Counted from the first letter of the stretch, positions 1,050-26,917 are shown. The stretch: DNA of 64,000 bases from Nitrospirota bacterium (GCA_027021335.1 JALUUO010000016.1:1776-65775), one strand, 5' to 3'. Numbers and translations: made by a program. The notes: generated by a model not told the origin, from the sequence alone.

Positions 1050-3827
1050 TTAACGGCGGCGTCCGGTACGTCGTCTGTCTCCCCCCATGCGCGGTGGTTG
1101 AAATCCACGCTCATGTTTATGACACATTGTGCAATCTCGTCCTGAATTATGTGCCTGACCGCCTGGGGCTGTTCCGTCGGCCTGATGATGATTTGTTTGA
1201 GTGTGGCATGTATTACATATGTAGTTTTCCGTGGACATGTCATCCGGACGATCTATCAGATCATAGGCAAAACTGTAGGGTCCTGTCCTGGCTTCGAACA
1301 CCACCGGGGTTCCGCGAACCAGACTGCGTATAAATGCCAGATTTATATTATTGCGGAAATTGACCTGTTGTCTCATCGGGTTGTGGCACTCGACGCAATT
1401 GAGAGAGGCTAGTTGGCCGGTATATGGATCTACGTATTTGTCACTGTAATGGGCTATAACTTTGATATCAGAACCGCCGTTCTGGGCATTCGGACTATCA
1501 GCTTTATGACAACCGTAGCATTTGCTGTTGTCGATAGGAGAGTCAAAGACAGCATCCACTATATCCCCGTTTTCATCCGCCGTGTGACATACCACGCAAT
1601 CAAAAACATTATGAGGAGGAGGAGGTTGCGTCGGTAGGAAGGCGTTACTATGTGAATGACAGTTAGTACACTTTTTACCGTCATTGTGTCCTATATAACC
1701 GAATTCGTCATTATCCGCAGGCGCGCCTCCATCATAGTGATGATGGTTGGTTATGGTATGACAGGTTTCACATACGTTTTCATTGTGAGGAGGGCCATCT
1801 GCAAACGAATCCTCTCCCTGATGGCTTGTGAAAACTATATTGCTATCCGGTATGACACTACCTGAAAGAGTTGATCGTATAAGCTTTATATTTGTTTGTT
1901 CGAACATGGGATTATGACAATCCACACAGGAATTGTTGTAGATATATTTGCCAGATCCGTTTTCCGAGGTGTGGGCAAGCACATCCGGCGCTTCCGGAAA
2001 GCTATCTTTTAATATGCCTAAAGGCGTATGGCACTGCTTGCATTTTGCACTTGGTATTTCAGCACTGTAATCAATAATTCCGTTCCAGTCATCCATGTGA
2101 CAATAGTTACAGTTACTCAGGAAATCCTCTGTATTATGCGGCGGCTGGGGTGTTGCTCCTGCCGGTGAGAAACCTGCGGAGTGGAGATGGCACTCAGTGC
2201 ATTTTTTGCCGTCATTATGCGACTGTCCACCCGGGGCTGTTCCGTCGTTTTGGTGATGATTGGTTCGGGTATGGCAGGTTTCGCATATGTTTTCATTATG
2301 AGGAGGACCGTCTGCAAACGAGCCCGGACCTTCACCGGCCGTAAATTCAACATAGCTTTCGTTATGTTTACCAGTGGCTTGGTTGTCTAAACAGATATAT
2401 TCTTTAATAAGCTTGCCGTATGATGTCCCGTACTTACGGTTCTGCTCCTGTTGGTGAGGGTTGTGACAAGTTACACAATGCATATCCCAGTCTCCATACT
2501 TGGTTCCCAGTGTCAACGAGGAGTGAACCTTTACGTTTGGAGCAGAGCCGAAGCCGTAGGGAAAAGGATCTGGATATTGTGCTTTTAGCACTCCGTTTAG
2601 AGGATCAGATGTGTCAGCCGGATCTGCATGACAACGTTGGCATTGATAGTTTCCGCCCGGTACCGCATTGCCTTCCGCATCTTTATAATGACACTTGCCG
2701 CAGCGCAGCTCTGTATTGTCAGGGTGCAGGGATTCGTCCGGATTAAGCAGGTCAGCCAGATGCGGCGGGTCTTTTGGTGTTGTTTTGGTTCCGCAGGTCG
2801 GTGGACCGCAGTCGGCGATATCATTCTCGTCTGTCTGGCTGTCACAATCATTATCAATGCCGTCGTCACAGACCTCTCTTGCCTCTGGATACCTTGCCGG
2901 ATCGTTATCGTCGCAGTCGCCGGCGCACCATGCTACACCATCACCATCTGCGTCCACATCAGTGGATGGCCTGGCTCCGTCACAGTTTGAATCCTTGCCG
3001 TCGCAGATCTCAACAGCGCCTGGATAGACACTCGAGTCATTGTCGTCACAGTCTATAGGACCGCACGCCCCACCTGAAGTTGAATATCCGTCTCCGTCCA
3101 CGTCTGTTTCCACGCAGGTAAGGCAATTTGGATCTGTTGCACAAGATGAATAATCAGCGCAATCGCTAAGCCCGTCGCAGTTGTTATCCTTGCCGTCACC
3201 GCATAGCTCGATAGCTCCTGCATACACATCAGGATCACTATCATCACAGTCGTCACCACCACAAATCGTTAATGAATGTCCGTCACCGTCGTTATCCGGA
3301 CAAACACATCCTGCCTCATCCAGGCTACCGTCGCAGTTGTTGTCTTTATTGTCTCCACAGATTTCAATGTTGCCGGGATATACTGATGCATCAAAATCGT
3401 TGCAGTCGGGCGGATTGTCACAGAGCCTTACTCCATCTCCGTCTGGGTCTCTTTCGTTATAGGGCAGTATACCGTTACAGTCGTCATCAATTTTATTACA
3501 TAGCTCTACCGCGCCGGGATATCTCGCCGGATCGTTATCATCGCAGTCGCCGGCGCACCATGCTACACCGTCACCATCAGCATCCACGTCAATAAATGAC
3601 TGATATCCGTCACAGTTTGAATCCTTACCGTCACAGATCTCGGCTGCATTTGGATGTACTTTGGCATCCTGATCATCACAGTCGGTCTGGCTCCCGTTTA
3701 AGCAACTTGTATCTCCGGGGTTGCCGTAGCCGTCTTGATCGATGTCAATACACTGCGCCCGAAGATTCGGAGCCCAGACTACCAGAACTAAAATACAACT
3801 CAGAAGTAGCTTTAAAAAAAACTTCAT
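1050..3827 (-). CDS. Secreted fusion protein: N-terminal MopE-like (DxDxDGDG / CxxDCDDxDxxxxPGAxExCdGxDnDCdG) putative metal-binding repeats plus a C-terminal multiheme c-type cytochrome with 15 CxxCH motifs
   Basis: The ORF track shows a 932-aa ORF. The likely true start is MKFFLK at 3827 with a GGAGG RBS, followed by a signal peptide. I counted 15 CxxCH motifs: CGKCH, CQRCH, CVTCH, CETCH, CTECH, CNYCH, CKQCH, CVDCH, CETCH, CTNCH, CVVCH, CYGCH, CVECH, CNTCH and CTMCH. The module FADGPPHNENxCETCH...HNDGKKCTxCH is triplicated. Confidence 0.75.
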   Translation of the reverse strand: MKFFLKLLLSCILVLVVWAPNLRAQCIDIDQDGYGNPGDTSCLNGSQTDCDDQDAKVHPNAAEICDGKDSNCDGYQSFIDVDADGDGVAWCAGDCDDNDPARYPGAVELCNKIDDDCNGILPYNERDPDGDGVRLCDNPPDCNDFDASVYPGNIEICGDNKDNNCDGSLDEAGCVCPDNDGDGHSLTICGGDDCDDSDPDVYAGAIELCGDGKDNNCDGLSDCADYSSCATDPNCLTCVETDVDGDGYSTSGGACGPIDCDDNDSSVYPGAVEICDGKDSNCDGARPSTDVDADGDGVAWCAGDCDDNDPARYPEAREVCDDGIDNDCDSQTDENDIADCGPPTCGTKTTPKDPPHLADLLNPDESLHPDNTELRCGKCHYKDAEGNAVPGGNYQCQRCHADPADTSDPLNGVLKAQYPDPFPYGFGSAPNVKVHSSLTLGTKYGDWDMHCVTCHNPHQQEQNRKYGTSYGKLIKEYICLDNQATGKHNESYVEFTAGEGPGSFADGPPHNENICETCHTRTNHHQNDGTAPGGQSHNDGKKCTECHLHSAGFSPAGATPQPPHNTEDFLSNCNYCHMDDWNGIIDYSAEIPSAKCKQCHTPLGILKDSFPEAPDVLAHTSENGSGKYIYNNSCVDCHNPMFEQTNIKLIRSTLSGSVIPDSNIVFTSHQGEDSFADGPPHNENVCETCHTITNHHHYDGGAPADNDEFGYIGHNDGKKCTNCHSHSNAFLPTQPPPPHNVFDCVVCHTADENGDIVDAVFDSPIDNSKCYGCHKADSPNAQNGGSDIKVIAHYSDKYVDPYTGQLASLNCVECHNPMRQQVNFRNNINLAFIRSLVRGTPVVFEARTGPYSFAYDLIDRPDDMSTENYICNTCHTQTNHHQADGTAPGGQAHNSGRDCTMCHKHERGFQPPRMGGDRRRTGRRR
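2817..3776. repeat. Direct repeat copy 2 (see 1..960)
   Basis: Identical ORF-track entries 237..446 vs 3053..3262 and 365..646 vs 3181..3462 (offset 2816). Confidence 0.85.
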
Positions 3828-3883: not shown

Positions 3884-5623
3884 TTAATAGCTGAAACCCC
3901 GATGATTGCGTCCATGGCACCGCAAGTAGCATCTGCCTTTGAATGTTCCTAAGTCTTCGAATTTTAACTCACCACTCATTCTTTCAGGAGAAACAACGGA
4001 TGTGTCAAAATTGATAAGATGTGCGTTATTAACAGCATTCCCCTGAGAACTGCTTATGCCGTGAGGGTCGTGACATATTGCACATGGCGCGTTTTGTCTT
4101 ACTATATGAAAGTAGTGCCTGGCAAAACTTTCGTTGCCCAGTATGCTGTTTCTGTCGTGGCACTTATAACATAGCGCGTAGTTGTCAGGGCTTTCACTTG
4201 TGTAATCATTCATTATGTATTGCCTTTCAAGAAGGTAAGGATTTTGTGAGCCGTGAGGTCCTGCCGGGCCTGACCCTCCGGCCCCGGGGCCATTGTTATT
4301 GCTGTGACAGTCGGTGCAGTAGATGACACTGGCTGTTGTGTATCCAGGCAGAAGACTTGGAACGTTTGGGTTTCGTCCAGGCCCTTCGACCGGATGGTAT
4401 GCCGGGTTACTTAAATCAAACTGAAGCCGTCTGTTTAACTGACGTATCTGTCTTGGCACCGCTGTTGTACCCTCGGCGCTGTCTCCATGACATTTAAAAC
4501 ATATCTCATATTGGTAAGAAGCTGTTTTTACGGGCACTCCCTGGGCATTTACTCCGGTTACTCCCATTTGCACGCCTTTTACGTTTGGGGCGCTTGCCTC
4601 TGAACTGTTCACCTGGTGGGGGTTATGGCAATCCATGCATTCCACGTGTCTTTGTACTGTCAGAAAATTTTCTTTTGGTTCATGAATTCCGGCTGTACTG
4701 GCCACAGGATGAAAGGAAAGTTTTGAAAACTGGCTCTCGATATTCAGGGCAGCCACATTCCCATTATGACAAGGGAAACAATTGTTTTCTTCTGCATACT
4801 CATTAAGCAACCTTTCTTGACTGCCGGCGCTGTGTGGACGGTGGCAGTTTTCACATGCATTTTCTGCGACAGTAGTCCATTCGGTATGTTTCCATGGATC
4901 TGGAGCTATTCCGTTCCAAGTGGACGTAGAAAGATTATGCGAGCAGGAAGACCATCCTGTTTTCTGATGGCACTTAAGGCATAAAGCCGATGATGAATTG
5001 ACCACTCTAAGAAACTTACCATTGGCGTTGTTATGTGGGTCATGGCATGAAATACACTGTAACTCATTGTTTTTATCCAGCTTGACTTCATCGATAAGCA
5101 GTGAAGGGTTTTTGAATTCAGGGTTTACTATCGAAAGATAGCTGTCATATACAAAAGAGATAGGATGATCGTCCGAAAGGTCACTGGTAAGTGCTGCTGG
5201 ACCTGAATCCAGGTATCGTTGTGTCATATCGATTTCAAGTAGTCTGGAGCCGAGATCACCTAATGCTATGGTTCCGTCATGACAAGTCAAGCAGAGCCTT
5301 GAAGCACCTGTTGGCTGTCCGATGTTTGTCTGAATTGTTGTGCTGCTATAAGGTATGTAGGTGGCGGTAGAGTCCCGCTTATTCCATAACAGCCCCACTC
5401 CTTGCGCTTTGTGCGGTGTGTGGCAGAAAACGCATACTTCGCCTTCACTTATAGCTTTTATGGTTCCCGGGCCGGAAACCGAAAGATTGTGCTTGGAATC
5501 CACGACACTCATTGATGAGGCCGGCAGAGCTGACAGCAGGAGGATCAGCGGCACGGCAACATAAAACAACCATGTTGTATTAGATGAATTTATGAATTTT
5601 TTATATATATACGGTCTCTTCAT
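3884..5623 (-). CDS. Multiheme c-type cytochrome (11 CxxCH plus one CxxxCH), secreted
   Basis: 579-aa ORF with an N-terminal hydrophobic segment. Motifs: CVFCH, CLTCH, CISCH, CLKCH, CENCH, CFPCH, CMDCH, CFKCH, CTDCH, CYKCH, CAICH and CYLRCH. Confidence 0.8.
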   Translation of the reverse strand: MKRPYIYKKFINSSNTTWLFYVAVPLILLLSALPASSMSVVDSKHNLSVSGPGTIKAISEGEVCVFCHTPHKAQGVGLLWNKRDSTATYIPYSSTTIQTNIGQPTGASRLCLTCHDGTIALGDLGSRLLEIDMTQRYLDSGPAALTSDLSDDHPISFVYDSYLSIVNPEFKNPSLLIDEVKLDKNNELQCISCHDPHNNANGKFLRVVNSSSALCLKCHQKTGWSSCSHNLSTSTWNGIAPDPWKHTEWTTVAENACENCHRPHSAGSQERLLNEYAEENNCFPCHNGNVAALNIESQFSKLSFHPVASTAGIHEPKENFLTVQRHVECMDCHNPHQVNSSEASAPNVKGVQMGVTGVNAQGVPVKTASYQYEICFKCHGDSAEGTTAVPRQIRQLNRRLQFDLSNPAYHPVEGPGRNPNVPSLLPGYTTASVIYCTDCHSNNNGPGAGGSGPAGPHGSQNPYLLERQYIMNDYTSESPDNYALCYKCHDRNSILGNESFARHYFHIVRQNAPCAICHDPHGISSSQGNAVNNAHLINFDTSVVSPERMSGELKFEDLGTFKGRCYLRCHGRNHRGFSY

Positions 5624-5673
5624 AGCCTTTTTGGACCTCCTTGTTTTTCGGTTACATATTCCAACTTCTTAGG

Positions 5674-6735
5674 TTATTCCTTCACGTACTGGAAAACCTG
5701 TATTCTTTGGTTAAATGAATCGGATACATATATGCGGTCGTTACTGTCAATTAAAATGCCTGCAGGTAAATAGAACTCGCCCGGTTTACGGCCTGGAGTT
5801 CCAAAATAAAGCAGAGCATGCCCTTTGGGGTTGAATATCTGAATATTGTTGAATTCTGCATCAACCACATATATGTGGTTGTCACTGTCCACAGCTATGC
5901 CTCTTGGCTTGGAAAACGCTCCGGGGCCGTCGCCTGCTATACCGAAACTACTTAGAAAACCGCCGTCATTACCAAAAATCTGAACTCGGAAGTTCATAGA
6001 GTCTGTAACATACAGGTTTCCTTTAGTATCCAGACATATATTTGTAGGGTAATTAAATTCACCAGGCTTCTCTCCACGTTGACCTAAGTCAAATAACAGC
6101 TTTCCATTAGTACGGTTATAAACACGTATTTTATGCGCCATGGTATCAACAACATAAAGTTTTTCAAGCAGGCTGTCTACGACCAGACCGGTAGGCCTCA
6201 TGAATTCACCAATTGTTGTTTCCAGCAATCCATCTCGGTTAAATACATAAACCTTCTTTGCCACAGAGTCTGATACATATATTTTCCCATCCTCGGCCAC
6301 ATCTACGTCGATTGGGGAAAGGAAAACCATATTATCTTTTTTGGCAGGGATCTGACGGTATTTACCGTCCGGCAGATGAAATATATGTACTAACCTGCCT
6401 CCTGTGTCAACAATAAGAAGATTATCTTTTTTATCCAAGGCTAACCCGTATGGACGGATAAGCAAAGGCATATTTTTACCTAAAAACAGTTCTTTAACCC
6501 GATTTAAAAAGCCTGTGCTTTTAGATATATCCCTTGGAAAGTTTATCTCTCTTTCAAAAACTATCCTTGCCTTTTGTGGTGGCGGTGGCCATGTGATGGC
6601 CTGACTGTTTTTTTCTTTTTGCTGGAGTTGAGTTGTTTCAGAACATCCTGCAAAAAAAGCGCTTACGAGTATTAACATGCAGAAGATCTTTATTGCCGGA
6701 AAAAACGAAAGCCTGGCTGTTTTTGAAATTAACAT
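5674..6735 (-). CDS. NHL-repeat (six-bladed beta-propeller) lipoprotein
   Basis: Repeated NHL-type motifs: LYVTDSMNFRVQIF, IYVVDAEFNNIQIFNPKG and IYVSDSFNQRIQVF. The lipobox-like segment is AFFAGCSE. The ORF track extends the ORF to 6843, overlapping the upstream gene, so the start is taken at the internal Met (MLISK...) about 6735. Confidence 0.7.
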   Translation of the reverse strand: MLISKTARLSFFPAIKIFCMLILVSAFFAGCSETTQLQQKEKNSQAITWPPPPQKARIVFEREINFPRDISKSTGFLNRVKELFLGKNMPLLIRPYGLALDKKDNLLIVDTGGRLVHIFHLPDGKYRQIPAKKDNMVFLSPIDVDVAEDGKIYVSDSVAKKVYVFNRDGLLETTIGEFMRPTGLVVDSLLEKLYVVDTMAHKIRVYNRTNGKLLFDLGQRGEKPGEFNYPTNICLDTKGNLYVTDSMNFRVQIFGNDGGFLSSFGIAGDGPGAFSKPRGIAVDSDNHIYVVDAEFNNIQIFNPKGHALLYFGTPGRKPGEFYLPAGILIDSNDRIYVSDSFNQRIQVFQYVKE

Positions 6736-6745
6736 CAATTGTGTT

Positions 6746-8716
6746 TTACCTCCTGCTTCCAAAGAGCCTTCGAGCTCTGAGGTAGATGCGCTCACGTTTT
6801 TCTTTTCCAATGGTTGTTTCCTGGTTTCGATTAAGGTTTTCATAGGTTAAGGTTATATCCAAAGTTCTGTAGCGCCAACGTAAATTAGTACGGAAGTTGA
6901 ATGAAACCTGTTTTTCACCCACAAGTTCCTGGTTGCGGTACTGTGTTTCAATATCACACTTTGCTCTGTATGGAAGGAATAAAAACAACTTTGCGGAAAC
7001 TGTACGGTCGATTGAATCCTCAATATACTCGAATGTGGATGTTTCAGAGTAGCTGGCGTTTAGATTTAAAACAGGGTTGAAATATCGTAAATTTTTTAAT
7101 CTGAAAATGAGGACTTCGGAGTATTTTGTGGTTTTATATGGATTTCTAACAGACTTATGAATAGTTTTTTCTGCTCTGGTTGTTGAATTTTTCCACTTTA
7201 TTTCAGTGCCGAATGACTTGTCTCTTATATCTTCAAGCCTGCCGATATCGTTTCCGCCTTTTAGCGATTGATCAGAACTGCCCGCATAGTAAAATACCCT
7301 CCAAGCCCTTTTTATATCCAGTTGTCCCCCATAAGTTTGAGTTCGCGTTTCGAATTCGATTGGAGGAGTAGGTTCAAAGTCGTAGCTTATATAAACTGTC
7401 TTACCTAACAGAAAATCTCCATATGCCGGTAAGAGTCTTATTTTGGTAAGTGTTCCGGATTTTTCCAGTCTGTAGTGAAGCCCTTCTTCAATAGGAAGTC
7501 CGGTTACTGGATCGGTGATCTCAAGGCTGTCTTTATCCTCTATTTTAATTGTCGCCTCATCTACAAGATCCCGTTTTAGAAGAATTACATCATCGCCCTC
7601 CGGGTTTTCTCCAAAAAAATGTTCTTCTCTTGAAATGTGGCTTTTGTCTTCAGAAAAGTTTTCATCTGTGTTTTCTATGAAAGTACGGTAGTTGAGAGTC
7701 AGCCTGCCAAAAGAAAGGCGTTTACGGTAATTGAAACGTAATTCTGCAGAAAGTGTATCTTTTTTGCCTGAGTTTAATGTGTAATTTTCTCCGTTTAGTT
7801 CGACACCTGTACTAAGGCTTTCATAAAGTTGGTGTTTCAGGCCGGCGCGGTACCGGTGTTGTTTTGTCACTTTGCCTACCAGCCTGGAATCCTCATAGTC
7901 GTAACGATAGTAGGAATCAAGGTTTTTTGTATGTCTAATATAGATGTTTTCTCCTACTGTAATATCTCTGTATGGAATTGTGCCTGTCTGGTCTCGCCAG
8001 CGAAACAGGCTTGTCAATGCATGCTGCTCTTTAGAACCGAAGTGGTAAGTGTTTGAGGCATTGACCAGATCTGTCTGTAAATCCAGATGTGCCACAGCTT
8101 GGGACCTTCTTTCGTTTTCATACCTTAAGGTACTTGTCCCTAGCATGCCTTCGTTACGAATGCTCAGGTATGCTCTGTTAAGTTTGTCATTGGTTTTGTC
8201 CTGTCCCTCTCCAACAGAGCTCAGCGTGTCATAACCAAGGTCTGTAGGAAACAATTTATGCCGGTAATGAAGAGCAACCCCTTTTTGGGTGGTAGTGAGA
8301 CGTTGGCTTTCGAAAAAACTGCTGTTTGTATCCTGAGTGTTTCTGTTTGCAAGCAGGGTCATTGATATGGGATGAGACTTTAAAATAAGCATTGATAGGT
8401 TGTAATCAGTGTACTTGTCTCTTAACTCCTGCTGAAACTGCATATTGGATGTTTCAGACTCCTGCTTGAAAATAAACTTCGTGTCGGCTTTGAATTCGAG
8501 AAGGCGTGGGTGATAGACGTAGCCATCCACGCCCAATCCCAGTTCTTCAAATAATGCTTCGTCCAGTTCTTTAATAGGCATGTTCGTCCGCAAATTTTCG
8601 CGGTAATCATTTTCCCGCTCAGCTCCAAGTCCGATAAAACCTCCTAGTCTATTAAAACTGACTGAAGTGATAGGGGTAGTCTGGTTTTGGGCCTGTAATA
8701 AAGGAACCTGTAACAT
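6746..8716 (-). CDS. Hypothetical beta-rich protein, possibly an outer-membrane beta-barrel/porin-like component of the cytochrome cluster
   Basis: 656-aa ORF rich in Y/R/N/T/S with alternating-residue segments typical of beta-barrels. In-frame upstream translation (…KRFKIAIITCFYII-MLQVPLLQA↓QNQ) reads like a signal peptide, but I found no canonical start codon upstream. Confidence 0.5.
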   Translation of the reverse strand: MLQVPLLQAQNQTTPITSVSFNRLGGFIGLGAERENDYRENLRTNMPIKELDEALFEELGLGVDGYVYHPRLLEFKADTKFIFKQESETSNMQFQQELRDKYTDYNLSMLILKSHPISMTLLANRNTQDTNSSFFESQRLTTTQKGVALHYRHKLFPTDLGYDTLSSVGEGQDKTNDKLNRAYLSIRNEGMLGTSTLRYENERRSQAVAHLDLQTDLVNASNTYHFGSKEQHALTSLFRWRDQTGTIPYRDITVGENIYIRHTKNLDSYYRYDYEDSRLVGKVTKQHRYRAGLKHQLYESLSTGVELNGENYTLNSGKKDTLSAELRFNYRKRLSFGRLTLNYRTFIENTDENFSEDKSHISREEHFFGENPEGDDVILLKRDLVDEATIKIEDKDSLEITDPVTGLPIEEGLHYRLEKSGTLTKIRLLPAYGDFLLGKTVYISYDFEPTPPIEFETRTQTYGGQLDIKRAWRVFYYAGSSDQSLKGGNDIGRLEDIRDKSFGTEIKWKNSTTRAEKTIHKSVRNPYKTTKYSEVLIFRLKNLRYFNPVLNLNASYSETSTFEYIEDSIDRTVSAKLFLFLPYRAKCDIETQYRNQELVGEKQVSFNFRTNLRWRYRTLDITLTYENLNRNQETTIGKEKRERIYLRARRLFGSRR

Positions 8717-8853
8717 TATTATATAAAAGCAGGTGATAATTGCTATTTTAAATCTTTTTACTATGTTGCACCTCGTACATCACGTATTGAATTATTTTTT
8801 GTTTATACTTCGCTGATAAAACCATTAAAAACCATTAAAATATTAAACCGGCC

Positions 8854-9504
8854 TCACTCTGTTTTAAGCATAAAACGGGCCTGGCTTCCATGAGGGTCAT
8901 GACACTCTGTACAGGCTGTATCGTCTATTTCCTCATGAATCACTGTTTTTAAAAGTCGATTTTCGTTGTGGCATTTAAAGCAGAGCTTCTGAATAGGCCA
9001 GATCTGCAGCATATACGGGTTTGCGGTTTCATGAGGATGATGACACTCCAAGCAAGCCCCGAATTGAACAGGTGCATGTACCCATGCAAAAGTTTTGCCC
9101 AAATCCTCTTGTGACATATAGTCATGACATCTAAGGCAAATTCTGAGTTTTTTATCTAAAAGGGTGAAACCAACCGGAGCTGCAATAGTCCTTTTTGTTG
9201 TCTGGTGGCATCCATAACACATTTTTACGGCATATGGTGGATGTTGAACCGTTGTAGGAGACAGCTCTACCGGAGCTTTAGTTTGATCCTGGGTGTTTCT
9301 TTTAGCGGCGGTATTAAATTCTTTCCGGTCGGTCGGTTTGATCTCCGGTGGTGTGTCAGTTGTTTTTTTTGTCTTTTGTATTGGCGGAACGCCATCGAAA
9401 AAAAAGGATAAAACACGGTGTTTCGTCATCTGGTCACAACCCTGTAGCATAAAAAAGGCTATGAAAATTGCCGCTATCAAAGTCAATATTTTTTTTTTGA
9501 TCAT
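8854..9504 (-). CDS. Pentaheme c-type cytochrome lipoprotein
   Basis: 216-aa ORF. Signal/lipobox MIKKKILTLIAAIFIAFFMLQGC. Motifs: CYGCH, CLRCH, CLECH, CFKCH and CTECH. Confidence 0.8.
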   Translation of the reverse strand: MIKKKILTLIAAIFIAFFMLQGCDQMTKHRVLSFFFDGVPPIQKTKKTTDTPPEIKPTDRKEFNTAAKRNTQDQTKAPVELSPTTVQHPPYAVKMCYGCHQTTKRTIAAPVGFTLLDKKLRICLRCHDYMSQEDLGKTFAWVHAPVQFGACLECHHPHETANPYMLQIWPIQKLCFKCHNENRLLKTVIHEEIDDTACTECHDPHGSQARFMLKTE

Positions 9505-9505
9505 G

Positions 9506-10699
9506 CTATTTTGTCTTTTTATTTTTTAACGCTTTTGGAGCTCCTGACCCATGTTTTTTACCATATTCTTTCTGATTCTCAACTTCCCCTTTTGCAAGGG
9601 GGCTTCCTTCTCTTGCATTACCAAATCCATAAATATTGATGTATGGCGGTCCGTATTGGCTTGTGACTAAAATCAGGTGTTCTAAAATGAAATCATCATG
9701 GCTGAGCGAATTAAAATAAGACAGCAGGCTTTTGTCTGTTGTAATTCCGGCTGGAAGCCAGAGAGCTCCGGGCACCATGGCGTCTCCCCATCCACCAAAG
9801 AAGAGAGCCGGTTTTCCCTCTGCTGTGAATATTTGAACATTTTCAAACGCTGAATCGACGACATAGATGAAACCTTTATCATCAACAGCAACTCCCTTTG
9901 GCCTGGCAAAGGTTCCAACAGCATCTCCGCATTGTCCAATAACAAGGAGGACATTTCCATCCGGGTCAAACTTCTGTATTCTGCAGTTGAGCGTGTCCGA
10001 AACGTAAAGATTTCCATCTTTGTCAATTGTTAGATTTGTCGGGTGATAAAACTGTCCTTCGTCCTGTCCAGGATCACCGATAATGCTTAAACGTTCTCCG
10101 GTTTTTTTATCCAGGACTTCAACTTCATGGTCTCTTGAATCAGCAACATACAACTTATCCCCAAAGACGGCAACATCAGTCGGCTTAAACTGTTCTTTAT
10201 TGCCAAAAGCCCGCTTGAAATTATTATCCTTATCAAACACAACGACCTGGTGGCGGTCATAGTCGGCAACATATTTTGTCCCGTTTTTATCAAAAGCAAT
10301 ATTTATAGGGCGAATTAGATTTCCGGCTCCCTGGTCGTGAAACCAGTCAAACTTGTTGTTTACAACGTCAATAACCATGACAGTTCCGAACTGGACGTCA
10401 CATACATAGATAATACCGTTATACACTTCTATTCCGTAAGGTTTCCCAAAGTTTCTAACGCTTTCTCCTCCAACAACAAAGGTTTCGAATGCGGAGCGTT
10501 TCTCTACATCCCTGGAAGATGAGATACGTTTAAGAAACTGTACTTTTGGCGGTTGAGGCGGAGGTGGAAAGAACCTGGTGCCAAGTTTTTGCCCGGTTGT
10601 TGCGCATCCACTCATAAGCAGAAGGGTAGACAGGCATGTAACCATTAAATAAAAGGGTGTAACAGTATGTGAAAGGAACTTTATAACTATGGTTTGCAT
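9506..10699 (-). CDS. NHL-repeat beta-propeller lipoprotein, paralog of 5674..6735
   Basis: NHL-type motifs: IYVCDVQFGTVMVIDV, YVADYDRHQVVVFDKD, LYVADSRDHEVEVLDKK, LYVSDTLNCRIQKFDPDGN and IYVVDSAFENVQIF. Lipobox LLLMSGC. Confidence 0.75.
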   Translation of the reverse strand: MQTIVIKFLSHTVTPFYLMVTCLSTLLLMSGCATTGQKLGTRFFPPPPQPPKVQFLKRISSSRDVEKRSAFETFVVGGESVRNFGKPYGIEVYNGIIYVCDVQFGTVMVIDVVNNKFDWFHDQGAGNLIRPINIAFDKNGTKYVADYDRHQVVVFDKDNNFKRAFGNKEQFKPTDVAVFGDKLYVADSRDHEVEVLDKKTGERLSIIGDPGQDEGQFYHPTNLTIDKDGNLYVSDTLNCRIQKFDPDGNVLLVIGQCGDAVGTFARPKGVAVDDKGFIYVVDSAFENVQIFTAEGKPALFFGGWGDAMVPGALWLPAGITTDKSLLSYFNSLSHDDFILEHLILVTSQYGPPYINIYGFGNAREGSPLAKGEVENQKEYGKKHGSGAPKALKNKKTK

Positions 10700-10791: not shown

Positions 10792-10831
10792 GCCGAAAAA
10801 AAGCCCTGCGCTCTTAATCGGGGCACAGGGC
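10792..10831 (-). terminator. Rho-independent terminator or attenuator on the minus strand, immediately after the first cytochrome gene
   Basis: Minus-strand sequence GCCCTGTGC-(loop 12 nt)-GCGCAGGGC forms a 9-bp stem including one G-U pair, followed by TTTTTTT. Confidence 0.5.
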
Positions 10832-10858: not shown

Positions 10859-11569
10859 TTATTTTATATGACAGGTTAGGCAAAGTCCGCTGGCTGTTCC
10901 ACCTTGATTCGCTGATTGAGCTACTCTCAACAGGTGAGTGTTAGGAACGGACTCCTGGTCATGGACGTCATGGCATGAACTGCACTGTACCCTGCCGTTG
11001 TCCAGAACATCTGAGATGGTTCCTGAGAGCCCCATAACCCTGGTTGTCGGATCCCAGAGATTTGGATCAGCTACATTATTATATTCAATAGATATCGGAT
11101 GAGTGTTGCTCATGTTTTTGTCGCCGCTTACGTCCGGGATGCCGGGTATCTGGAACTGGCCGCCTGCAAAGCTGTCAATATAAATTGATCCGCTATTTCC
11201 GTCAAACTGATCAATGCCTATTGTTCCATCGTGGCAGCCCAGGCAGAGCTTCGAAACACCCATGGGTTCAGGTTCGGCAGCGCCGTCTATGAAGTTGGCA
11301 TGACTATCCTCCGCATACATAAGATAGGTAGAGGAGCTTAGATCGTGGTTCCATAAAAGTCCGAAATCAGCTCTGTTACTGCCGAAATCATGGGGTACAT
11401 GGCATACACGGCATATTTCACCGCTGGTATTCCATGTTCTATCGCTAAAATCATGAGGAGATCCAACAATTCCTGCTCCGTTACCTTCTGCAAAAGAGAT
11501 GGTTGCAGTCATGCCTATTACCATTATTGCTGTACAACACAATGTAGCTAATTTTTTCATTTGTAACAC
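10859..11569 (-). CDS. Tetraheme c-type cytochrome, secreted. First gene of the operon
   Basis: 236-aa ORF. Signal peptide MLQMKKLATLCCTAIMVIGMTATISFA. Motifs: CRVCH, CLGCH, CSSCH and CLTCH. Confidence 0.8.
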   Translation of the reverse strand: MLQMKKLATLCCTAIMVIGMTATISFAEGNGAGIVGSPHDFSDRTWNTSGEICRVCHVPHDFGSNRADFGLLWNHDLSSSTYLMYAEDSHANFIDGAAEPEPMGVSKLCLGCHDGTIGIDQFDGNSGSIYIDSFAGGQFQIPGIPDVSGDKNMSNTHPISIEYNNVADPNLWDPTTRVMGLSGTISDVLDNGRVQCSSCHDVHDQESVPNTHLLRVAQSANQGGTASGLCLTCHIK

Positions 11570-11734
11570 CTTCCCTTAACTTAGTATTTAATTTAAAATT
11601 TATTTTGAAACTATATATGTATTTCTTAAATATTTTTACGTAAAATTAAAATATTATCAGAACCCTTCACCTCCTTTATTTTTATTAAAAACTATCCCTC
11701 CAAAATATTTTTATAGTTGATTTGCTTTTGTAAC

Positions 11735-11750
11735 TGCAATTACCGGGCCA
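11735..11750 (-). promoter_or_regulatory. Candidate sigma-54 (RpoN) -24/-12 promoter driving the cytochrome/NHL operon
   Basis: Minus-strand sequence is TGGCCCGGTAATTGCA, against the consensus TGGCAC-N5-TTGCW. There is one mismatch and the spacing is exact. It lies about 165 nt upstream of the ATG at 11569. Confidence 0.5.
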
Positions 11751-11859
11751 TGATTGGGTTTATCAGGTGACCTGCTAGAAAGCCTTGCTATAATTAAGAT
11801 AATTATAGAGAGTTTGATTGTTGTTAATGATCGGGAAAGAAAAGAAGTGCGTGTTATTT

Positions 11860-11893
11860 CCCACCAACTGAGCCAAAGCGCTCAGTTGGTGGG
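11860..11893. promoter_or_regulatory. 14-bp perfect inverted repeat (CCCACCAACTGAGC-N6-GCTCAGTTGGTGGG). Candidate enhancer-binding-protein (UAS) site or terminator hairpin
   Basis: Perfect palindrome read directly from the sequence. It is centred about 130 bp upstream of the sigma-54 candidate and about 60 nt downstream of the stop of the upstream cytochrome gene. Confidence 0.45.
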
Positions 11894-11955
11894 TGTAAGT
11901 AAAGGTCTTTTGTGCCGCTTATTTTCAGGATAAGAAGTGGTTTTCGACCCCAGAT

Positions 11956-13359
11956 TCAACGATTTTTCACAGCTTTTTCCCTGTTATACTTTCTTGGAAA
12001 GTGACATGCTGGTGCGCATCCGCCGCCGTTGTCATCTATCTTGAAGTTAAGTGGAAACTGCCATTTACCGAATTTTGTGATTTCCCTGATATGCTTTGGC
12101 CCTTTAGATCCATGGATATCATGACATACAACACATCTTCGTCCCTTTTTGGGGTCTTTCTTAACATGAACGTAATGGAGATTGGTTGTTCCGTTTCTAA
12201 AACCGGTGCTCTCGGATGTCTCCTTTTCTTGAACGAGTTCCTCATCATGGCAGCCGAAACATAGGCTATACTTTTCCGGCGCAAACTTGGTGTAAAACGT
12301 GGATGGAAACGCTCTGCGTAACATTCTCCATTCGTTTGAGCCATGAGGATTGTGGCAGGCGGCACAATCACCATCCATCAAAATCGGACCATGAAGTTGC
12401 GGGCGCTCTTTAAGCCATCTTTTCATGTTTATTAGTCTGCCTTTGTCGGTTTTTATTGCACGGTTATGACACTTCAGGCAGAGGTCCATAGTCTCCTCGG
12501 CTTTGAGCTGCTTTGGGAAATCTGATGCGTGTGGATCATGGCAGTTTACGCAGCTTCCCTCGGCCTGGATGGCTCCGTGTGGGGTCTTTACCTGTGTTAT
12601 ATGTTCTTCTTTATCCGAATGGCAGCCATAGCATAGCTCTGGTGGTGATAGAAGGAGTTGGTATTTATTTTCGGTGCCGTGTGGACTATGACATCCGGTG
12701 CACCCAACCATCTCAATGGCTGCGTGGACATACTTCTTGGTTGTAATTGCCTCTTCTTTATCGACATGGCACATAAGACAGACATCTTTGCCTTCAGCAG
12801 GCAGCCGGAAAGGATAGGGGGACTCGTGTGGATCGTGACATATTGTGCACTCTCCTGCTGCCACAGGAGCATGAACATATTTGTGTGTAGTTTTATCATC
12901 CTCATGACAGTTAAAGCAAAGCTTGCTGACCGGAGAGTCTAAAAGTTGATATGGGTTGGGTGATTGGTGAGGACTGTGACACATGGTACAGTCTCCGGAT
13001 GCCACCGGTACATGAACCTCTTTTTGAGTGTTTTTCGGATCATGACACATGTAGCACAAGACGTCACCGGTATCGATAACTTTAAATTTATTGTCTTTTG
13101 TAAGTTCATGACATACCGTGCAGTCCCCCATGGCAAAGGCGGCGTGAACATAGCCGTCTGGTGGAGGGGTGGCAAGATCTTTGTGACATTTAAAGCAGGT
13201 TGCAGGGTTTGAAGCATCAAGTCCTGCATGGCCGGCTTCAGCTGAAAAAGCAGCTTGTGGACTAAAGAGGAAAAGCCGGGAAATAAGTATGCCGGCAAAG
13301 ATAATTAAAGTTTTTTTCAAAAAGTGGTTATTGTTTAGATAATATTTTGGATACAGCAC
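11956..13359 (-). CDS. Multiheme c-type cytochrome (14 CxxCH plus one CxxxCH)
   Basis: 467-aa ORF starting at GTG. The likely real start is TTG at about 13321, giving MKKTLIIFAGILISRLFLFSPQAAFSA. Motifs: CFKCH, CTVCH, CYMCH, CTMCH, CFNCH, CTICH, CLMCH, CTGCH, CYGCH, CVNCH, CLKCH, CAACH, CFGCH, CVVCH and CAPACH. Confidence 0.8.
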   Translation of the reverse strand: MLYPKYYLNNNHFLKKTLIIFAGILISRLFLFSPQAAFSAEAGHAGLDASNPATCFKCHKDLATPPPDGYVHAAFAMGDCTVCHELTKDNKFKVIDTGDVLCYMCHDPKNTQKEVHVPVASGDCTMCHSPHQSPNPYQLLDSPVSKLCFNCHEDDKTTHKYVHAPVAAGECTICHDPHESPYPFRLPAEGKDVCLMCHVDKEEAITTKKYVHAAIEMVGCTGCHSPHGTENKYQLLLSPPELCYGCHSDKEEHITQVKTPHGAIQAEGSCVNCHDPHASDFPKQLKAEETMDLCLKCHNRAIKTDKGRLINMKRWLKERPQLHGPILMDGDCAACHNPHGSNEWRMLRRAFPSTFYTKFAPEKYSLCFGCHDEELVQEKETSESTGFRNGTTNLHYVHVKKDPKKGRRCVVCHDIHGSKGPKHIREITKFGKWQFPLNFKIDDNGGGCAPACHFPRKYNREKAVKNR

Positions 13360-13702: not shown

Positions 13703-13791
13703 GGCCTTGTTTATATGACTTTAGAGGGGTATCCATGTTTAGTTATATGCAATATCAATGCCACATGTTTTGCCCCTCCGTTTTTACCCGC

Positions 13792-15162
13792 TCAGAGAAG
13801 GTAGTATTTTTTCATGCGATATCTAAGGGCGTCTCTGCCCATGCTGAGCAGCTTTGCAGCATGGACCTGATTGCCATGTGCCGCTGCGAGAGCTTGTTGA
13901 ATAAGCTCTTTTTCGACCTCTTCAAGTGAAACGCCTTCAGAGGGAAGGCTGACGGTAGAGCTTGCCGCGCTTAACGCCTTTTCAGGTTGAGTGATTTCGA
14001 TAGGCAGGTGCTCAGGCAGAATAACCTCTTCGTTTTCTAGGATGATTGCACGCTCTATCACGTTTTTCAGTTCACGCACATTTCCGGGCCAGCGATAGCG
14101 TAACATCATTTCTTCAGCTTTTTGAGAGATTCCTTGAACTTTCTTTTTGAAATCCCTGTTAAAAACATTTATGAAATGTTGAATCAAAAGCGGGATATCC
14201 TCTTTACGCTTACGCAGTGGTGGCAGGAATATTGGAAATACCTTCAGACGATAATATAGATCTTCCCGAAAAGTGCCTTTTGCAGAGGCTTCTTTTAAAT
14301 CTTCGTTGGTTGCGGCTATAATTCTGGCATTCACCACGGTCTCCTTTATACCGCCCAGGCGTTTGAATGATTTGCTTTCGATCACTCTAAGAAGTTTTGC
14401 CTGTGTACTCATAGGCATGGCTCCAATCTCATCAAGTAAGATTGTTCCGCTGTCAGCCAGTTCAAAAAACCCTTTTTTCATGGCCTTTGCATCTGTGTAG
14501 GCGCCTTTTTCGTGGCCGAAGAGTTCACTCTCGATAAGGGTTTCTGGAAGAGAAGTGCAATTAATTTCCAGGTAAGGGTTTTCTGCTCTCTTGCTCTGGT
14601 AGTGAATCGCCTTGGCGATCACATCCTTTCCCGTCCCGCTTTCTCCTTGCAGAAGCACTGTTGTTGCATCACTCTTGGCTATTTTTTCAACCATTTCGAA
14701 TACATTTTTCATGGCCTCAGTCTGCCCTACGATGTTTTGCATTCCGTAAAGGCTTTTCTGCTGATTCTTAAAGACATGGACTTCCTTTTTTAGGCTTACA
14801 GTTTCGAGAGCCTTGGAGATAGTTATCTTCAATTTCTCAAAATTAAAAGGTTTTTCGATGAAATCATATGCTCCAAGCTTCATGGCTTTTACCGATGTAT
14901 TGACGTCTCCGTACGCAGTCATCATTATAACCAGCGAATCTTCACGCAGTTTCTTTACCTTTTCCAGGATTTCTATTCCATCGGCTCCTGGAAGTTTGAT
15001 ATCTTGAAGAATAAGATCAGGACGTTCCTGTTCTATGATTTCCATGGCTTCCTCTCCGCTGTTTGCGGTCAGAACTTCGTAGTCTTCCTTCTGCAGGTTT
15101 TCTTTAAGAGACCAGCAGATTAATTTTTCATCGTCCACTACCAGGATGGTTGCTTTAGACAT
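13792..15162 (-). CDS. Sigma-54-dependent transcriptional response regulator (NtrC/AtoC family: receiver, AAA+ sigma-54 activation and Fis-type HTH domains)
   Basis: ILVVDDEKLICWSL...; Walker A GESGTGKDVIAKAIH; GAYTDA motif; C-terminal HTH AAHGNQVHAAKLLSMGRDALRYRMKKY. Confidence 0.85.
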   Translation of the reverse strand: MSKATILVVDDEKLICWSLKENLQKEDYEVLTANSGEEAMEIIEQERPDLILQDIKLPGADGIEILEKVKKLREDSLVIMMTAYGDVNTSVKAMKLGAYDFIEKPFNFEKLKITISKALETVSLKKEVHVFKNQQKSLYGMQNIVGQTEAMKNVFEMVEKIAKSDATTVLLQGESGTGKDVIAKAIHYQSKRAENPYLEINCTSLPETLIESELFGHEKGAYTDAKAMKKGFFELADSGTILLDEIGAMPMSTQAKLLRVIESKSFKRLGGIKETVVNARIIAATNEDLKEASAKGTFREDLYYRLKVFPIFLPPLRKRKEDIPLLIQHFINVFNRDFKKKVQGISQKAEEMMLRYRWPGNVRELKNVIERAIILENEEVILPEHLPIEITQPEKALSAASSTVSLPSEGVSLEEVEKELIQQALAAAHGNQVHAAKLLSMGRDALRYRMKKYYLL

Positions 15163-15165
15163 TTC

Positions 15166-15528
15166 TTAACTATGCTCCTTTGTATATCTGGCAATATACT
15201 CCGCTAGGAGTTTCCGGCAGTGCTCATCACACTTTGTAAACCGGATACCTTTGCCAAAGACGGATTTTCCCCCTTTTTCAGCTTCTCCGGACCAGACTAC
15301 TTGCCCGGATATCCGCAACGGTTTTATTCCTCCAGGAGGGAGTGAAAATTCAAGTTGTATCTCGGTGCCTATTCCCATAGGAATGTCTGTTTTTATAAAA
15401 ATTCCCCCCTCTCCTATATTAACCGCTTCCACCTCATATACTTCCTTTCTTTCTTGCTGTCGTACCCAGTATGTTACAATAATCGACAGCGGTACACGCA
15501 GTGATAACCTTTTTTCCCTAAAGCTCAT
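15166..15528 (-). CDS. PilZ-domain protein (c-di-GMP-binding type)
   Basis: RLSLRVPL...(RxxxR) and ...VNIGEGGIFIKTD (DxSxGG-like). The start is taken at the internal MSFREK to avoid overlap with the upstream kinase. Confidence 0.55.
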   Translation of the reverse strand: MSFREKRLSLRVPLSIIVTYWVRQQERKEVYEVEAVNIGEGGIFIKTDIPMGIGTEIQLEFSLPPGGIKPLRISGQVVWSGEAEKGGKSVFGKGIRFTKCDEHCRKLLAEYIARYTKEHS

Positions 15529-15541
15529 ATGTCTAATCTTG

Positions 15542-17035
15542 TCACTTTGTCTTTTTGGCTGGAAGCAGAACTGTAAAACATGTTCCCTCCCCAATACGGC
15601 TGTTTACTTCTATCCTTCCGTTGTGTTGCTGGACAATCTTCTGGCTGATGGAGAGTCCCAGGCCAGTTCCGGTATGGCGTGTTGTGAAGAAGGGGGTAAA
15701 AATTCTGGACATGTCTTGAGGATATATTCCTTTGCCGGAATCTTTGACCCATATCTCTACAAAGCGTTCTTTGTCTGAGGCCTTCCAGCCTTTCGAAAAT
15801 ATTCTTAAAACTCCACCGTTGGGCATGGCCTGAATTCCGTTGAGCCCAAGGTTTACCAGTACTTGCTGAATCTGTTTCTCGTCTATTTCGACCTTTGGAA
15901 TGGTTTCGTCAAGTTCTGTAACCACCTCTACTCCCTTCTGTGCTGCTCGTTCTTGGATCAGAAACACCACTTGGCGGATCACATCGTTGATGTTGTGTTC
16001 AGCAAGAGCTGGTTTCGCGGTTTTTGCATAGCTTAATAGATCCTTGATGTTTTGATCTATCCGGTCGATCTGTTTCAAAATCTCTTCAAATATTTCGCGC
16101 CTGGGATCATTTTCAGGCAGATCTCCCATCAGGATTTGCATCGCTCCGCTAATACCGGCGATCGGGTTTTTAATTTCATGGGCGATACCGGCTGAAAGTT
16201 CACCCAATGTCGCAAGTCTGTCTGCGCGCTGCATTCGTTGTTCATGAAGTTTCTTTAAATCCTTCTGAGCCGTTTCCAGTTTTGAGATCATTGAGTTGAA
16301 GTTTCGGCCCAACTCTCCGAACTCTACTGTTTCATCCGGTTTGACTCTGGCCGTCAGATCTCCTTTTTCAGCTTTGCGCATAGTGGTTATCAGGCTTTTT
16401 ATAGGGCGGTTAACCAAGTATGACAACAAAAACACAATCGAGATGACTAGTGCAAAAAGAGTGACCAAAACAGAGATGATCATGAATCTTCGAACAGTAG
16501 AGATGCGTTCGTGAAACTTTTCCATGGAGACTTCAACTTCCAAAACCCCATTGATTTGATTAAGTACGGAACCGTGGCAACGAAAACATGGCGGTTGATT
16601 TCTGATAGGCTTGATGATATAGAAAACCGGCTGCTCAAAATTTTTCTGTTCAAATATAGTGTTGAAACTCTGCCGGTGAAAGGTTTCCAGCTCATCTGAG
16701 TTTACTTTCCTTCCTTTTTCTTCAGGAAGGCTGGAGAGCAGGATAGTTCCGTCTTTTGAAAAAATCCTAACCTTCTCAAAATCCGGAAGGGTTCCCACGG
16801 CTTCAATTATATTTCTAACCTCATTGCTCCATCCGTTCAACATGAAGGTTTTAAGGGTTGTCTCGACAGTTTCAGCAATATCCATCAGCCTTTCTTTCGA
16901 AACATCCATGAGTTGATTGTACTGGATACGAAGATGGAGATATGAAGAGACACTGATGGCAAGTGTCAGAATCAGGGTGAGAAAAACTATGAACCTGACT
17001 TTAAGGCTTCGATTTAGTTGTTTAAATGTTTCCAT
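15542..17035 (-). CDS. Sensor histidine kinase (TM, periplasmic domain, TM, HAMP, HisKA, HATPase) with a CxxCH heme-c binding motif in the periplasmic sensor domain
   Basis: H-box AHEIKNPIAGI; G-boxes GTGLGLSIS; periplasmic segment ...QPPCFRCHGSVLNQ... between two hydrophobic segments. Confidence 0.8.
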   Translation of the reverse strand: METFKQLNRSLKVRFIVFLTLILTLAISVSSYLHLRIQYNQLMDVSKERLMDIAETVETTLKTFMLNGWSNEVRNIIEAVGTLPDFEKVRIFSKDGTILLSSLPEEKGRKVNSDELETFHRQSFNTIFEQKNFEQPVFYIIKPIRNQPPCFRCHGSVLNQINGVLEVEVSMEKFHERISTVRRFMIISVLVTLFALVISIVFLLSYLVNRPIKSLITTMRKAEKGDLTARVKPDETVEFGELGRNFNSMISKLETAQKDLKKLHEQRMQRADRLATLGELSAGIAHEIKNPIAGISGAMQILMGDLPENDPRREIFEEILKQIDRIDQNIKDLLSYAKTAKPALAEHNINDVIRQVVFLIQERAAQKGVEVVTELDETIPKVEIDEKQIQQVLVNLGLNGIQAMPNGGVLRIFSKGWKASDKERFVEIWVKDSGKGIYPQDMSRIFTPFFTTRHTGTGLGLSISQKIVQQHNGRIEVNSRIGEGTCFTVLLPAKKTK

Positions 17036-17778: not shown

Positions 17779-17815
17779 TACTTGCGGACAATATAAACTG
17801 TTTTAGTAGCTAAAG

Positions 17816-17852
17816 AAAGCCGGGTATATCGAATTCCGATACCCGGCTTTCT
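17816..17852 (+). terminator. Hairpin terminator after the tetraheme cytochrome gene
   Basis: AAAGCCGGGTAT-(loop)-ATACCCGGCTTT forms a 12-bp perfect stem followed by a T-containing tail. Confidence 0.5.
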
Positions 17853-17893
17853 TAATCAAAATGGAAATCTAAAAAAAAAAGGGGGACAAACTC

Positions 17894-26873: not shown

Positions 26874-26917
26874 GGCTTGCATAAAAGTACTTATTTTTAT
26901 GCAAGCCTCTTTTTTTA
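26874..26917. terminator. Rho-independent terminator, bidirectional, between convergent genes
   Basis: GGCTTGCATAAAA-(loop)-TTTTATGCAAGCC followed by TCTTTTTTT. Confidence 0.6.

Follow-up and report, generated by a model that had tools for sequence, protein, structure and literature searches.

A predicted activator-dependent sigma-54 promoter with tandem enhancer dyads upstream of an OmcE-type nanowire cluster in a Nitrospirota bacterium

Results

Organization of the Locus

The 395-bp minus-strand spacer (11955-11561) between the genes of a 467-amino acid multihaem cytochrome and a 233-amino acid OmcE-like cytochrome probably holds an activator-dependent sigma-54 promoter driving a predicted OmcE-type nanowire cluster (11560 to 3884, minus strand), a reading to which a probability of about 0.75 is assigned from the sequence. 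The features of the spacer and its surroundings are collected in Table 1, with positions counted along the window, which is the whole 64,000-nucleotide stretch of DNA analyzed.

Table 1. Coordinates of genes and sequence elements around the spacer
Feature	Position	Strand	Remarks
HAMP histidine kinase	15542-17035	-	Pfam; CFRCH haem-c motif in sensor domain
PilZ protein	15528-15166	-	
NtrC-type activator	13792-15162	-	Pfam REC + Sigma54_activat + HTH_8 (Fis-type HTH)
Second sigma-54 motif TGGCATTGATATTGCA	13748-13763	-	
REC-only protein	13702-13328	-	
467-amino acid multihaem cytochrome	13359-11956	-	Stop codon at 11956
Full palindrome	11860-11893		Perfect 14-N6-14
Site A, candidate enhancer dyad	11869-11884		Palindrome core
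Site B, candidate enhancer dyad TGGGAAATAACACGCA	11848-11863	-	
AT-rich palindrome CTATAATTA-TCT-TAATTATAG	11788-11808		Read from sequence
Candidate sigma-54 -24/-12 element TGGCCCGGTAATTGCA	11735-11750	-	
233-amino acid tetrahaem cytochrome, OmcE-like	10859-11560	-	ATG at 11560; first gene of cluster
Rest of omcE-type cluster	3884-10699	-	Five genes, one with no Pfam match

The orthologous loci (64-94% protein identity) retain the succession of REC gene, large cytochrome gene, long spacer and OmcE-like gene. A longer order, starting with the kinase and activator genes and continuing through the REC and cytochrome genes to the OmcE-like gene, is found in the window, L002/L089, L003/L091 and L006. 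The window is a metagenomic contig (ENA ERZ27262676) of an uncultured Nitrospirota bacterium, and the named relatives closest to it are Nitrospirota MAGs.

The 233-amino acid protein carries a signal peptide and four CxxCH motifs and matches PDB entries 7TFS (E = 3e-10) and 9YUQ (E = 9e-12) over nearly its full length. The PDB label of 7TFS is merely "Cytochrome c"; the entry is presumably the G. sulfurreducens OmcE filament, and by these matches the tetrahaem protein is a homologue of the OmcE nanowire cytochrome. The genes that follow it between 10699 and 3884 encode an NHL beta-propeller, a 216-amino acid cytochrome, a 656-amino acid protein, a second NHL beta-propeller and a 579-amino acid cytochrome. 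The 656-amino acid protein has no Pfam match and occupies the position of the large beta-barrel protein. In the smallest omcE cluster of the Desulfuromonadia the OmcE subunit is encoded together with two multihaem cytochromes, a pair of beta-propeller lipoproteins and a large beta-barrel protein, and homologues have been reported in Nitrospirota (bioRxiv 10.1101/2025.10.22.684050). The six-gene set of the window has this same composition, with the barrel assigned by position only, and what an earlier note on this DNA had called a cytochrome operon does contain cytochrome genes and is more specifically a predicted OmcE-type nanowire cluster.

A Conserved Sigma-54 Element Precedes the OmcE-like Gene

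The -24/-12 element TGGCCCGGTAATTGCA (11750-11735) is intergenic, points toward the OmcE-like gene and matches 10 of the 11 specified positions of TGGCAC-N5-TTGCW with exact GG-N10-GC spacing, as the earlier note had described. The single mismatch falls in the -24 hexamer, which reads TGGCCC and departs from TGGCAC/T; the closest relatives have TGGCCT and TGGTCT in this position. The 3' end of the element is 174 nt from the ATG, and transcription is predicted to start at about 11724, some 12 nt past the GC, leaving a predicted 5' UTR of about 164 nt. The sigma-54 pattern with at most one mismatch occurs 5 times in the window compared with 2.29 expected, and the match by itself is not significant there because 11 of 100 shuffles reach at least 5. 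The four matches in the window of at least 10/11 (11735, 13748 and 20051 on the minus strand and 20355 on the plus strand) each lie at the 5' end of a gene.

TGG-N9-TTGCA is kept in all eight orthologous intergenic regions, including those of the relatives L089, L010, L003, L011, L007, L012 and L052 (50-94% protein identity), at 162-175 nt before the ATG where this could be measured exactly and at 188 nt in L010, where the distance comes from an approximate start estimate. In the MAFFT alignment of the eight spacers the TGG and TTGCA are invariant, and the sequence around them is unalignable. The orthologous motifs are TGGCCTGTTAGTTGCA (L089), TGGTCTGGTAGTTGCA (L010), TGGCATGAGGTTTGCA (L003), TGGCATGGGGTTTGCA (L011), TGGCATAGCTATTGCA (L007) and TGGCATAGCGATTGCA (L012). 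For the wider gene family, the sequences upstream of homologues in Nitrospirota, Planctomycetota, Zixibacteria, Acidobacteriota, Hydrogenophilales, "Deltaproteobacteria" and other groups were scanned (165 distinct regions), and the coding strand was compared with the opposite strand and with shuffled sequences. A match of at least 10/11 is present on the coding strand in 54/165 regions, on the opposite strand in 2/165 and after shuffling in 0/165; at a threshold of at least 9/11 the corresponding counts are 79/165, 7/165 and 7/165, and the median distance from motif to gene start across the family is 119 nt. With conservation in every orthologous locus and across the wider family, the earlier reading of this element as a sigma-54 promoter is upheld, and a sigma-54 promoter before the OmcE-like gene is well supported and very probable on the sequence data.

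Neither an RpoN-box motif nor rpoN was found within the 64-kb window. The predicted leader was inspected separately. The consensus fold of the eight orthologous 5' UTRs contains zero pairs, and a conserved leader structure is therefore rejected. A leader peptide at the conserved AAGGAGGTGA block was also discarded, with reading frames that vary from 3 to 18 codons and a start codon lying inside a Shine-Dalgarno-like sequence. Rfam returned no match for 11450-12050 at E <= 1.

Tandem Dyads Lie at Enhancer Distance from the Promoter

The sole other conserved upstream block in the eight-spacer alignment is CTGnGnnAAAnnnCnCA-N5-CTGnGGnAnnnCnCnCA, which runs from the palindrome core through the arm nearer the promoter to a point 12 nt beyond it and thereby covers two copies, 21 bp apart, of a 16-bp dyad of the general type TGnGnG-N4-CnCnCA. 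Site A (TGAGCG-CTTT-GGCTCA, read from 11884 to 11869) is the exact center of the palindrome; it has the family form TGnGnG-N4-nnCnCA and aligns with TGCGTG-AAAT-AGCTCA and similar sites in the relatives. Site B (TGGGAA-ATAA-CACGCA, 11863 to 11848) follows after a spacer of 4-5 nt, has the family form TGrGGn-N4-CACGCA in all relatives, and is the stronger of the two while lying mostly outside the palindrome. Relative to the predicted start the centers are at about -152 to -153 for site A and about -132 for site B, and the separation of 21 bp places both dyads on the same helix face.

A matrix built from the relatives' sites only was used to rank 128,000 window positions. Site B ranks 2nd and is the top match of the whole locus L001, and site A comes 12th on one strand and 23rd on the other, with a weak match of about 9 bits compared with 14-23 bits in the relatives. 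The highest-scoring match elsewhere in the window (37610-37625) is inside a coding region and is taken as chance. A further matrix match is present at 1583-1598.

Position relative to the -24 element is maintained well beyond the closest relatives. Strong dyads are placed at -131 to -138 from it in L052, L013, L018, L016 and L074, a position shared by site A (-134), and the distant relatives have a near-perfect TGCGYG-N4-CRCGCA dyad at the distance of the palindrome center. In five loci that did not contribute to the matrix (L013, L018, L016, L074 and L046) the best or second-best match of the locus lies at -134 to -138, with the dyads TGCGTGAGACCGCGCA in L013, TGCGCGAAAGCACGCA in L018, TGCGTGATATGGCACA in L016 and TGCGCGAGACCACGCA in L074. 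Weaker or less clearly placed matches occur at -116/-117 in L138 and L155. Other clades have different tandem repeats in the same place, such as TGYCA-N3-TGRCA twice or TTTCATAATGAAA twice, as is expected if different activators are recruited there. The two dyads are best described, on this comparative evidence, as putative tandem enhancer sites of an enhancer-binding protein. The earlier proposal that the palindrome is an enhancer is thus supported for its center, which coincides with conserved site A, and does not extend to the nine outermost base pairs of the arms, which are lineage-specific; the enhancer position it gave agrees with the comparative data, and the unit is a tandem dyad pair with the stronger site B mostly outside the palindrome and not a single palindromic site.

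Between enhancer and promoter the AT-rich palindrome, centered at about -74, has no conservation in the relatives. It may form a bending or IHF-type region; no convincing WATCAANNNNTTR match to an IHF site was seen by eye between enhancer and promoter.

A Second Sigma-54 Element Precedes the REC-only Gene

The element TGGCATTGATATTGCA, overlooked in the earlier note, is a closer match to the consensus than TGGCCCGGTAATTGCA and is equally conserved, being present in L002, L003, L006 and L007. It immediately follows the activator gene; 45 nt further on comes the REC-only gene, and then the 467-amino acid cytochrome gene. The dyad motif recurs 190-210 nt upstream of the sigma-54 element of the REC gene in L003, L006, L007 and L012, the main sites having per-position p values between about 2e-5 and 7e-5 with the matrix made from OmcE-promoter sites only. 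L003 and L006 have a clear tandem pair at this promoter, GGTGTG-ATAT-CACACA gtca TGCGTG-TATT-CACGCT. The matrix scan did not find a dyad at the REC-gene promoter of the window itself.

The Palindrome Arms Extend beyond the Conserved Dyad

The palindrome CCCACCAACTGAGC-N6-GCTCAGTTGGTGGG is perfect and occurs once in the window, and about 127 bp separate its center (11876.5) from the downstream -24 element, in agreement with the perfect inverted repeat at some 130 bp noted previously. By arithmetic about 0.007 perfect 14-bp inverted repeats with a short loop are expected per 64 kb, and only three or four perfect hairpins of at least 14 bp are present in the window. The outer arms CCCACCAAC/GTTGGTGGG add nine complementary base pairs on each side of site A. 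The closest relatives (92-94% protein identity) do not have these outer 9 bp, which are therefore placed outside the conserved enhancer; L089 and L010 have the left flank CACCGCAACCAAC and not the complementary right flank. The arm is found nowhere else in the window and, among 168 loci, only in the identical contig L001, and a repeat or mobile element is rejected on this ground. The dyad core recurs at the promoters of the relatives; the full arm does not.

The palindrome might be mainly or only an RNA element, either a terminator or a hairpin stabilizing a 3' end, with its overlap with the enhancer position being incidental. It starts 62 nt past the stop codon of the 467-amino acid cytochrome gene and folds with an energy of about -30 kcal/mol (z = -5). 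Other perfect 14-15-bp hairpins of the window also lie just past gene ends (17813-17853, 41871-41906 between convergent genes, and 26874-26907), and two of these three have no T-run. Nine additional perfect pairs on each side are too many to arise by chance (4^-9, by arithmetic) and extend beyond the footprint of one activator dimer, and in L013 the dyad lies, independently, within an 11-bp stem about 70-90 nt past the upstream ORF. Against an RNA element as the whole explanation, the stem is followed by GAAAUAACACGCAC with no U-tract or T-run, and a terminator scan of 11400-12100 is empty, whereas the host has canonical terminators elsewhere, among them the hairpin at 26874-26907 and, following the OmcE-like gene, a 9-bp stem with U7. 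The hairpin energy is reached in the window only; the best hairpins of the seven relatives are non-homologous and range from -10 to -22 kcal/mol (about -11 kcal/mol in L089 and L010), yet the core and site B are conserved in sequence in the closest relatives, which do not have the hairpin. Moreover, the motif is found again at a further sigma-54 promoter and follows the recognition-helix type of the activator (see below), a signature at the level of DNA. An RNA element as the sole role of the palindrome is unlikely.

As an addition to the enhancer dyads an RNA-level role for the arms is quite plausible, if at somewhat less than even odds, since the extra pairs are non-random, the gene-end hairpins of the window are alike and L013 offers a parallel. 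The arms would then supply a transcript-end hairpin for the REC-cytochrome unit.

The Dyads Co-occur with One Type of Activator

The Pfam assignments agree with the NtrC/AtoC-family activator and kinase neighbors that had been pointed out, the Sigma54_activat domain of the activator being matched with E = 9e-68. The aromatic residue and the threonine are the critical positions of the GAFTGA loop, which contacts sigma-54. In the window this loop departs from the canonical sequence, a caveat for the proposed activator, and reads GAYTDA, in which Phe is replaced by Tyr and Gly by Asp with the aromatic residue and the threonine kept, and the activators of the relatives have GAFTDA or GAFTGA.

A recognition helix of the GRDALRYRMKK type is present in the activators of the window, L010, L089, L092, L011, L046, L016, L018 and L015. 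With this helix type the dyad is the rank-1 or rank-2 match of the locus in 5/5 loci not used for the matrix, 244-319 nt upstream of the OmcE-like gene. With other helix types the dyad is present in 1/13 loci, the exception being L072, which has a similar helix (SYDAMRYQVKK); the difference has a Fisher exact p of about 7e-4 by arithmetic. This co-variation of motif and recognition helix is the best available evidence for the binder and makes the adjacent NtrC-type activator the likely candidate. Of the 62 well-flanked loci of the family, 23 have an activator-like gene no more than about 6 kb away, and the sigma-54 motif is weakly linked to such a neighbor, being present in 11/23 loci that have one and in 12/39 that do not.

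The dyads could instead be bound by another enhancer-binding protein, a repressor or a co-regulator, in which case the neighboring two-component system would control something else. Dyads are present in L007 and L012, where an adjacent activator gene is absent, the REC-gene promoter of the window has no dyad although it lies beside the activator gene, and the TGTG../..CACA half-sites loosely resemble those of other regulator families. Such a regulator is nevertheless improbable, as the dyad tracks the GRDALRYRMKK-type helix, its position and tandem phasing are typical for enhancer-binding proteins, and the kinase-to-OmcE synteny is maintained in the loci listed above. The adjacent activator is thus preferred, and the regulatory circuit that the earlier note had drawn around it appears essentially right, with the dyad occurring only together with the same type of activator helix.

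The CxxCH motif of the kinase sensor domain (CFRCH) is conserved in the orthologues, which suggests that the signal is haem-based and probably redox. A Pfam match of this domain to Tll0287-like is sub-threshold, and the synteny of the kinase is kept in L002, L006 and L089.

It is very improbable that the -24/-12 match has no promoter function and that transcription is due to read-through or to a sigma-70-type promoter within the AT-rich spacer, for in spite of the window statistics and the imperfect -24 hexamer given above and of a 9/12 sigma-70-like sequence TTAACA-17-AATTAT at 11827-11799 (minus strand), such sigma-70-like matches are at background frequency (4 compared with 2.4 expected, and 29 compared with 24.8) in a region that is not conserved, whereas TGG-N9-TTGCA is invariant in the eight orthologues and the sigma-54 motif is strand-specifically enriched across the family.

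Discussion

The arrangement of the elements suggests how the predicted promoter may operate. Sigma-54 RNA polymerase would occupy the -24/-12 element as a closed complex, and the neighboring kinase with the haem-c motif would phosphorylate the adjacent NtrC-type activator. The phosphorylated activator would bind dyads A and B and oligomerise, with looping of the AT-rich spacer DNA, and its use of ATP would open the promoter for a start near 11724. The extra pairs of the arms would be unneeded for enhancer function; in the end of the upstream REC-cytochrome transcript they may fold into a stable hairpin by which the 3' end is stabilized or terminated, and the OmcE promoter would thereby be insulated from read-through.

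NtrC at glnAp2 and NifA, with its upstream activating sequence TGT-N10-ACA, act from dyads of 16-17 bp located about 100-150 bp upstream of the -24/-12 element. The arrangement proposed here resembles them in its tandem dyads, which keep helical phase by whole turns, in a Fis-type HTH dimer as the binder and in DNA looping. It differs in its half-site (TGnGnG-N4-CnCnCA), in the placing of one dyad inside a much longer perfect palindrome, and in serving respiratory or extracellular electron transfer and not nitrogen metabolism. The palindrome also resembles an intrinsic terminator, being a GC-rich perfect stem-loop soon after a stop codon with similar hairpins at other gene ends of the contig, but it has no U-tract, its hairpin is not conserved and its core is a conserved DNA dyad.

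A close parallel is the sigma-54-dependent cbcBA operon of G. sulfurreducens, for which dependence on BccR (GSU0598) has been shown genetically (bioRxiv 10.1101/2021.04.15.440034). In both cases an activator with REC, sigma-54 interaction and HTH domains is encoded beside a cytochrome operon with a sigma-54 promoter, predicted in the window, and a stand-alone response-regulator gene is part of an operon. Induction in the BccR/cbcBA system is linked to redox conditions, and a redox signal is presumed here from the kinase sensor. The target differs, being an OmcE-type nanowire cluster in the window and an inner-membrane bc-type complex in G. sulfurreducens. The activator gene of the window is co-directional with its target and accompanied by a kinase gene, whereas that of BccR is divergent, and the present host is a Nitrospirota bacterium. 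Compared with the omcE cluster of bioRxiv 10.1101/2025.10.22.684050, in which the words "sigma" and "promoter" do not appear and "regulat..." appears once, the locus described here includes a two-component system, a predicted sigma-54 promoter and a putative enhancer. The literature searched yielded no description of omcE promoters or of sigma-54/RpoN control of omcE clusters.

What is new is that the association with sigma-54 extends across the family, that a dyad is defined for one subfamily of activators, and that one sequence may serve both as enhancer and as hairpin; the advance is incremental because the architecture is a textbook one.

Extracellular electron transfer depends centrally on cytochrome nanowires such as OmcE, OmcS and OmcZ, whose regulation has been studied mainly in Geobacter. 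The sequence comparisons support the view that OmcE-type clusters are very often driven by sigma-54, that they are frequently paired with a neighboring two-component activator, and that one subfamily of these activators has a defined recognition dyad. More tentatively, and at well below even odds, a periplasmic haem-c sensor kinase, an NtrC-type activator and sigma-54 together might form a widespread and possibly ancestral control of OmcE clusters across phyla, with the dyad in this lineage extended to a dual-use element. Should this hold, the making of nanowires would as a rule be gated by an activator and decided by redox sensing; the extension of the dyad might have come about by templated quasi-palindrome mutation, and the resulting DNA enhancer and RNA transcript-end hairpin would insulate the nanowire promoter from the upstream cytochrome operon. 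The regulatory model obtained in this way can be tested, and its motif can serve to predict regulons in other phyla as well as in uncultured Nitrospirota. The analysis may also offer a handle for heterologous expression of the cluster, for example with a constitutively active activator.

A second sigma-54 motif and the sensor kinase

The regulatory genes upstream of the OmcE-like cytochrome gene carry a second sigma-54 motif, which lies closer to the sigma-54 consensus than the reported promoter motif (11735-11750) and is placed directly past the stop codon of the NtrC-type activator gene, 45 nt ahead of a REC-only gene. A sigma-54 motif before the REC-only gene is kept in four homologous loci of the OmcE-like gene used for comparison (L002, L003, L006 and L007), and in L003, L006 and L007 the same dyad motif as in the predicted enhancer (TGnGnG-N4-CnCnCA) occurs approximately 200 nt further upstream. 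A dyad upstream of the window's own REC-gene motif was looked for and none was seen. Within the periplasmic sensor domain of the histidine kinase lies a conserved CxxCH haem-c motif; this domain gives a sub-threshold match to the Pfam Tll0287-like family. The neighboring PilZ-domain gene, present in L006 too and absent in L002, encodes a domain implying c-di-GMP binding, and together with the kinase CxxCH motif it hints at redox and c-di-GMP inputs.

Features of the regulatory genes, leader and wider window (window positions)
Feature	Position	Strand	Remark
Intrinsic terminator	~10796-10830	-	canonical; 9-bp GC-rich stem and U7
Block AAAGGAGGTGA	11666-11676	-	5' UTR, ~105 nt before ATG
Palindrome CTATAATTA-TCT-TAATTATAG	11788-11808		AT-rich, perfect; ~-74, between enhancer and promoter
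Second sigma-54 motif TGGCATTGATATTGCA	13748-13763	-	consensus match
PilZ-domain gene	15166-15528	-	between kinase and activator genes
Histidine kinase gene	15542-17035	-	HAMP
Sigma-54 motif TGGCACAACCGTTGCA	20051-20066	-	perfect
Dyad TGTCCG-TAAAT-CGGACA	20147-20163		of another type; between the two adjoining sigma-54 motifs
Sigma-54 motif TGGCATATGACTTGCT	20355-20370	+	outward-facing
Dyad matrix match	1583-1598	+	high-scoring
Dyad matrix match	37610-37625	+	high-scoring
Hairpins	17813-17853, 26874-26907, 41871-41906		perfect or near-perfect, 14-16 bp

The leader and 3' end of the OmcE-like gene

The block AAAGGAGGTGA is near-perfectly complementary to the 3' end of 16S rRNA, and its AAGGnGGTGA form is invariant in all eight orthologous leaders. 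It is associated with no usable start codon and no conserved small ORF, and the leader shows no conserved fold among the orthologs and no Rfam match. Another GGAGG-like motif is found 30-45 nt upstream. The block might be a standby ribosome site or a protein-binding site. The AT-rich palindrome shows no conservation among relatives; it may serve as a bending or IHF-type site. Beginning approximately 28 nt past the OmcE-like stop codon, ahead of the NHL propeller gene, the terminator resembles attenuators found after major-subunit genes of filament operons. The three further hairpins sit 35-60 nt past gene ends, two of them without a T-run, and suggest that the organism has a class of such hairpins at gene ends.

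Other sigma-54 motifs and inverted repeats

The two sigma-54 motifs near 20 kb point outward from a single 290-bp region. The one on the minus strand closely precedes a likely later start (MFSISF...) for the gene that ends at 18756 and encodes a multihaem cytochrome. The window contains no second activator gene. The dyad matrix, built from the relatives' sites, has two high-scoring matches elsewhere, of which the one at 37610 falls within a coding region and is probably due to chance. In other clades of OmcE-like genes, tandem inverted repeats of other types are located upstream of the sigma-54 motifs, 70-100 nt from the -24 elements (L017, L027, L050, L075, L101; L060, L079; L044), with examples being TGYCA-N3-TGRCA, TTTCATAATGAAA and TTGCAAAATCTGCAA, each present twice. 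This variety of repeats among clades implies that the gene family has recruited several different activators.
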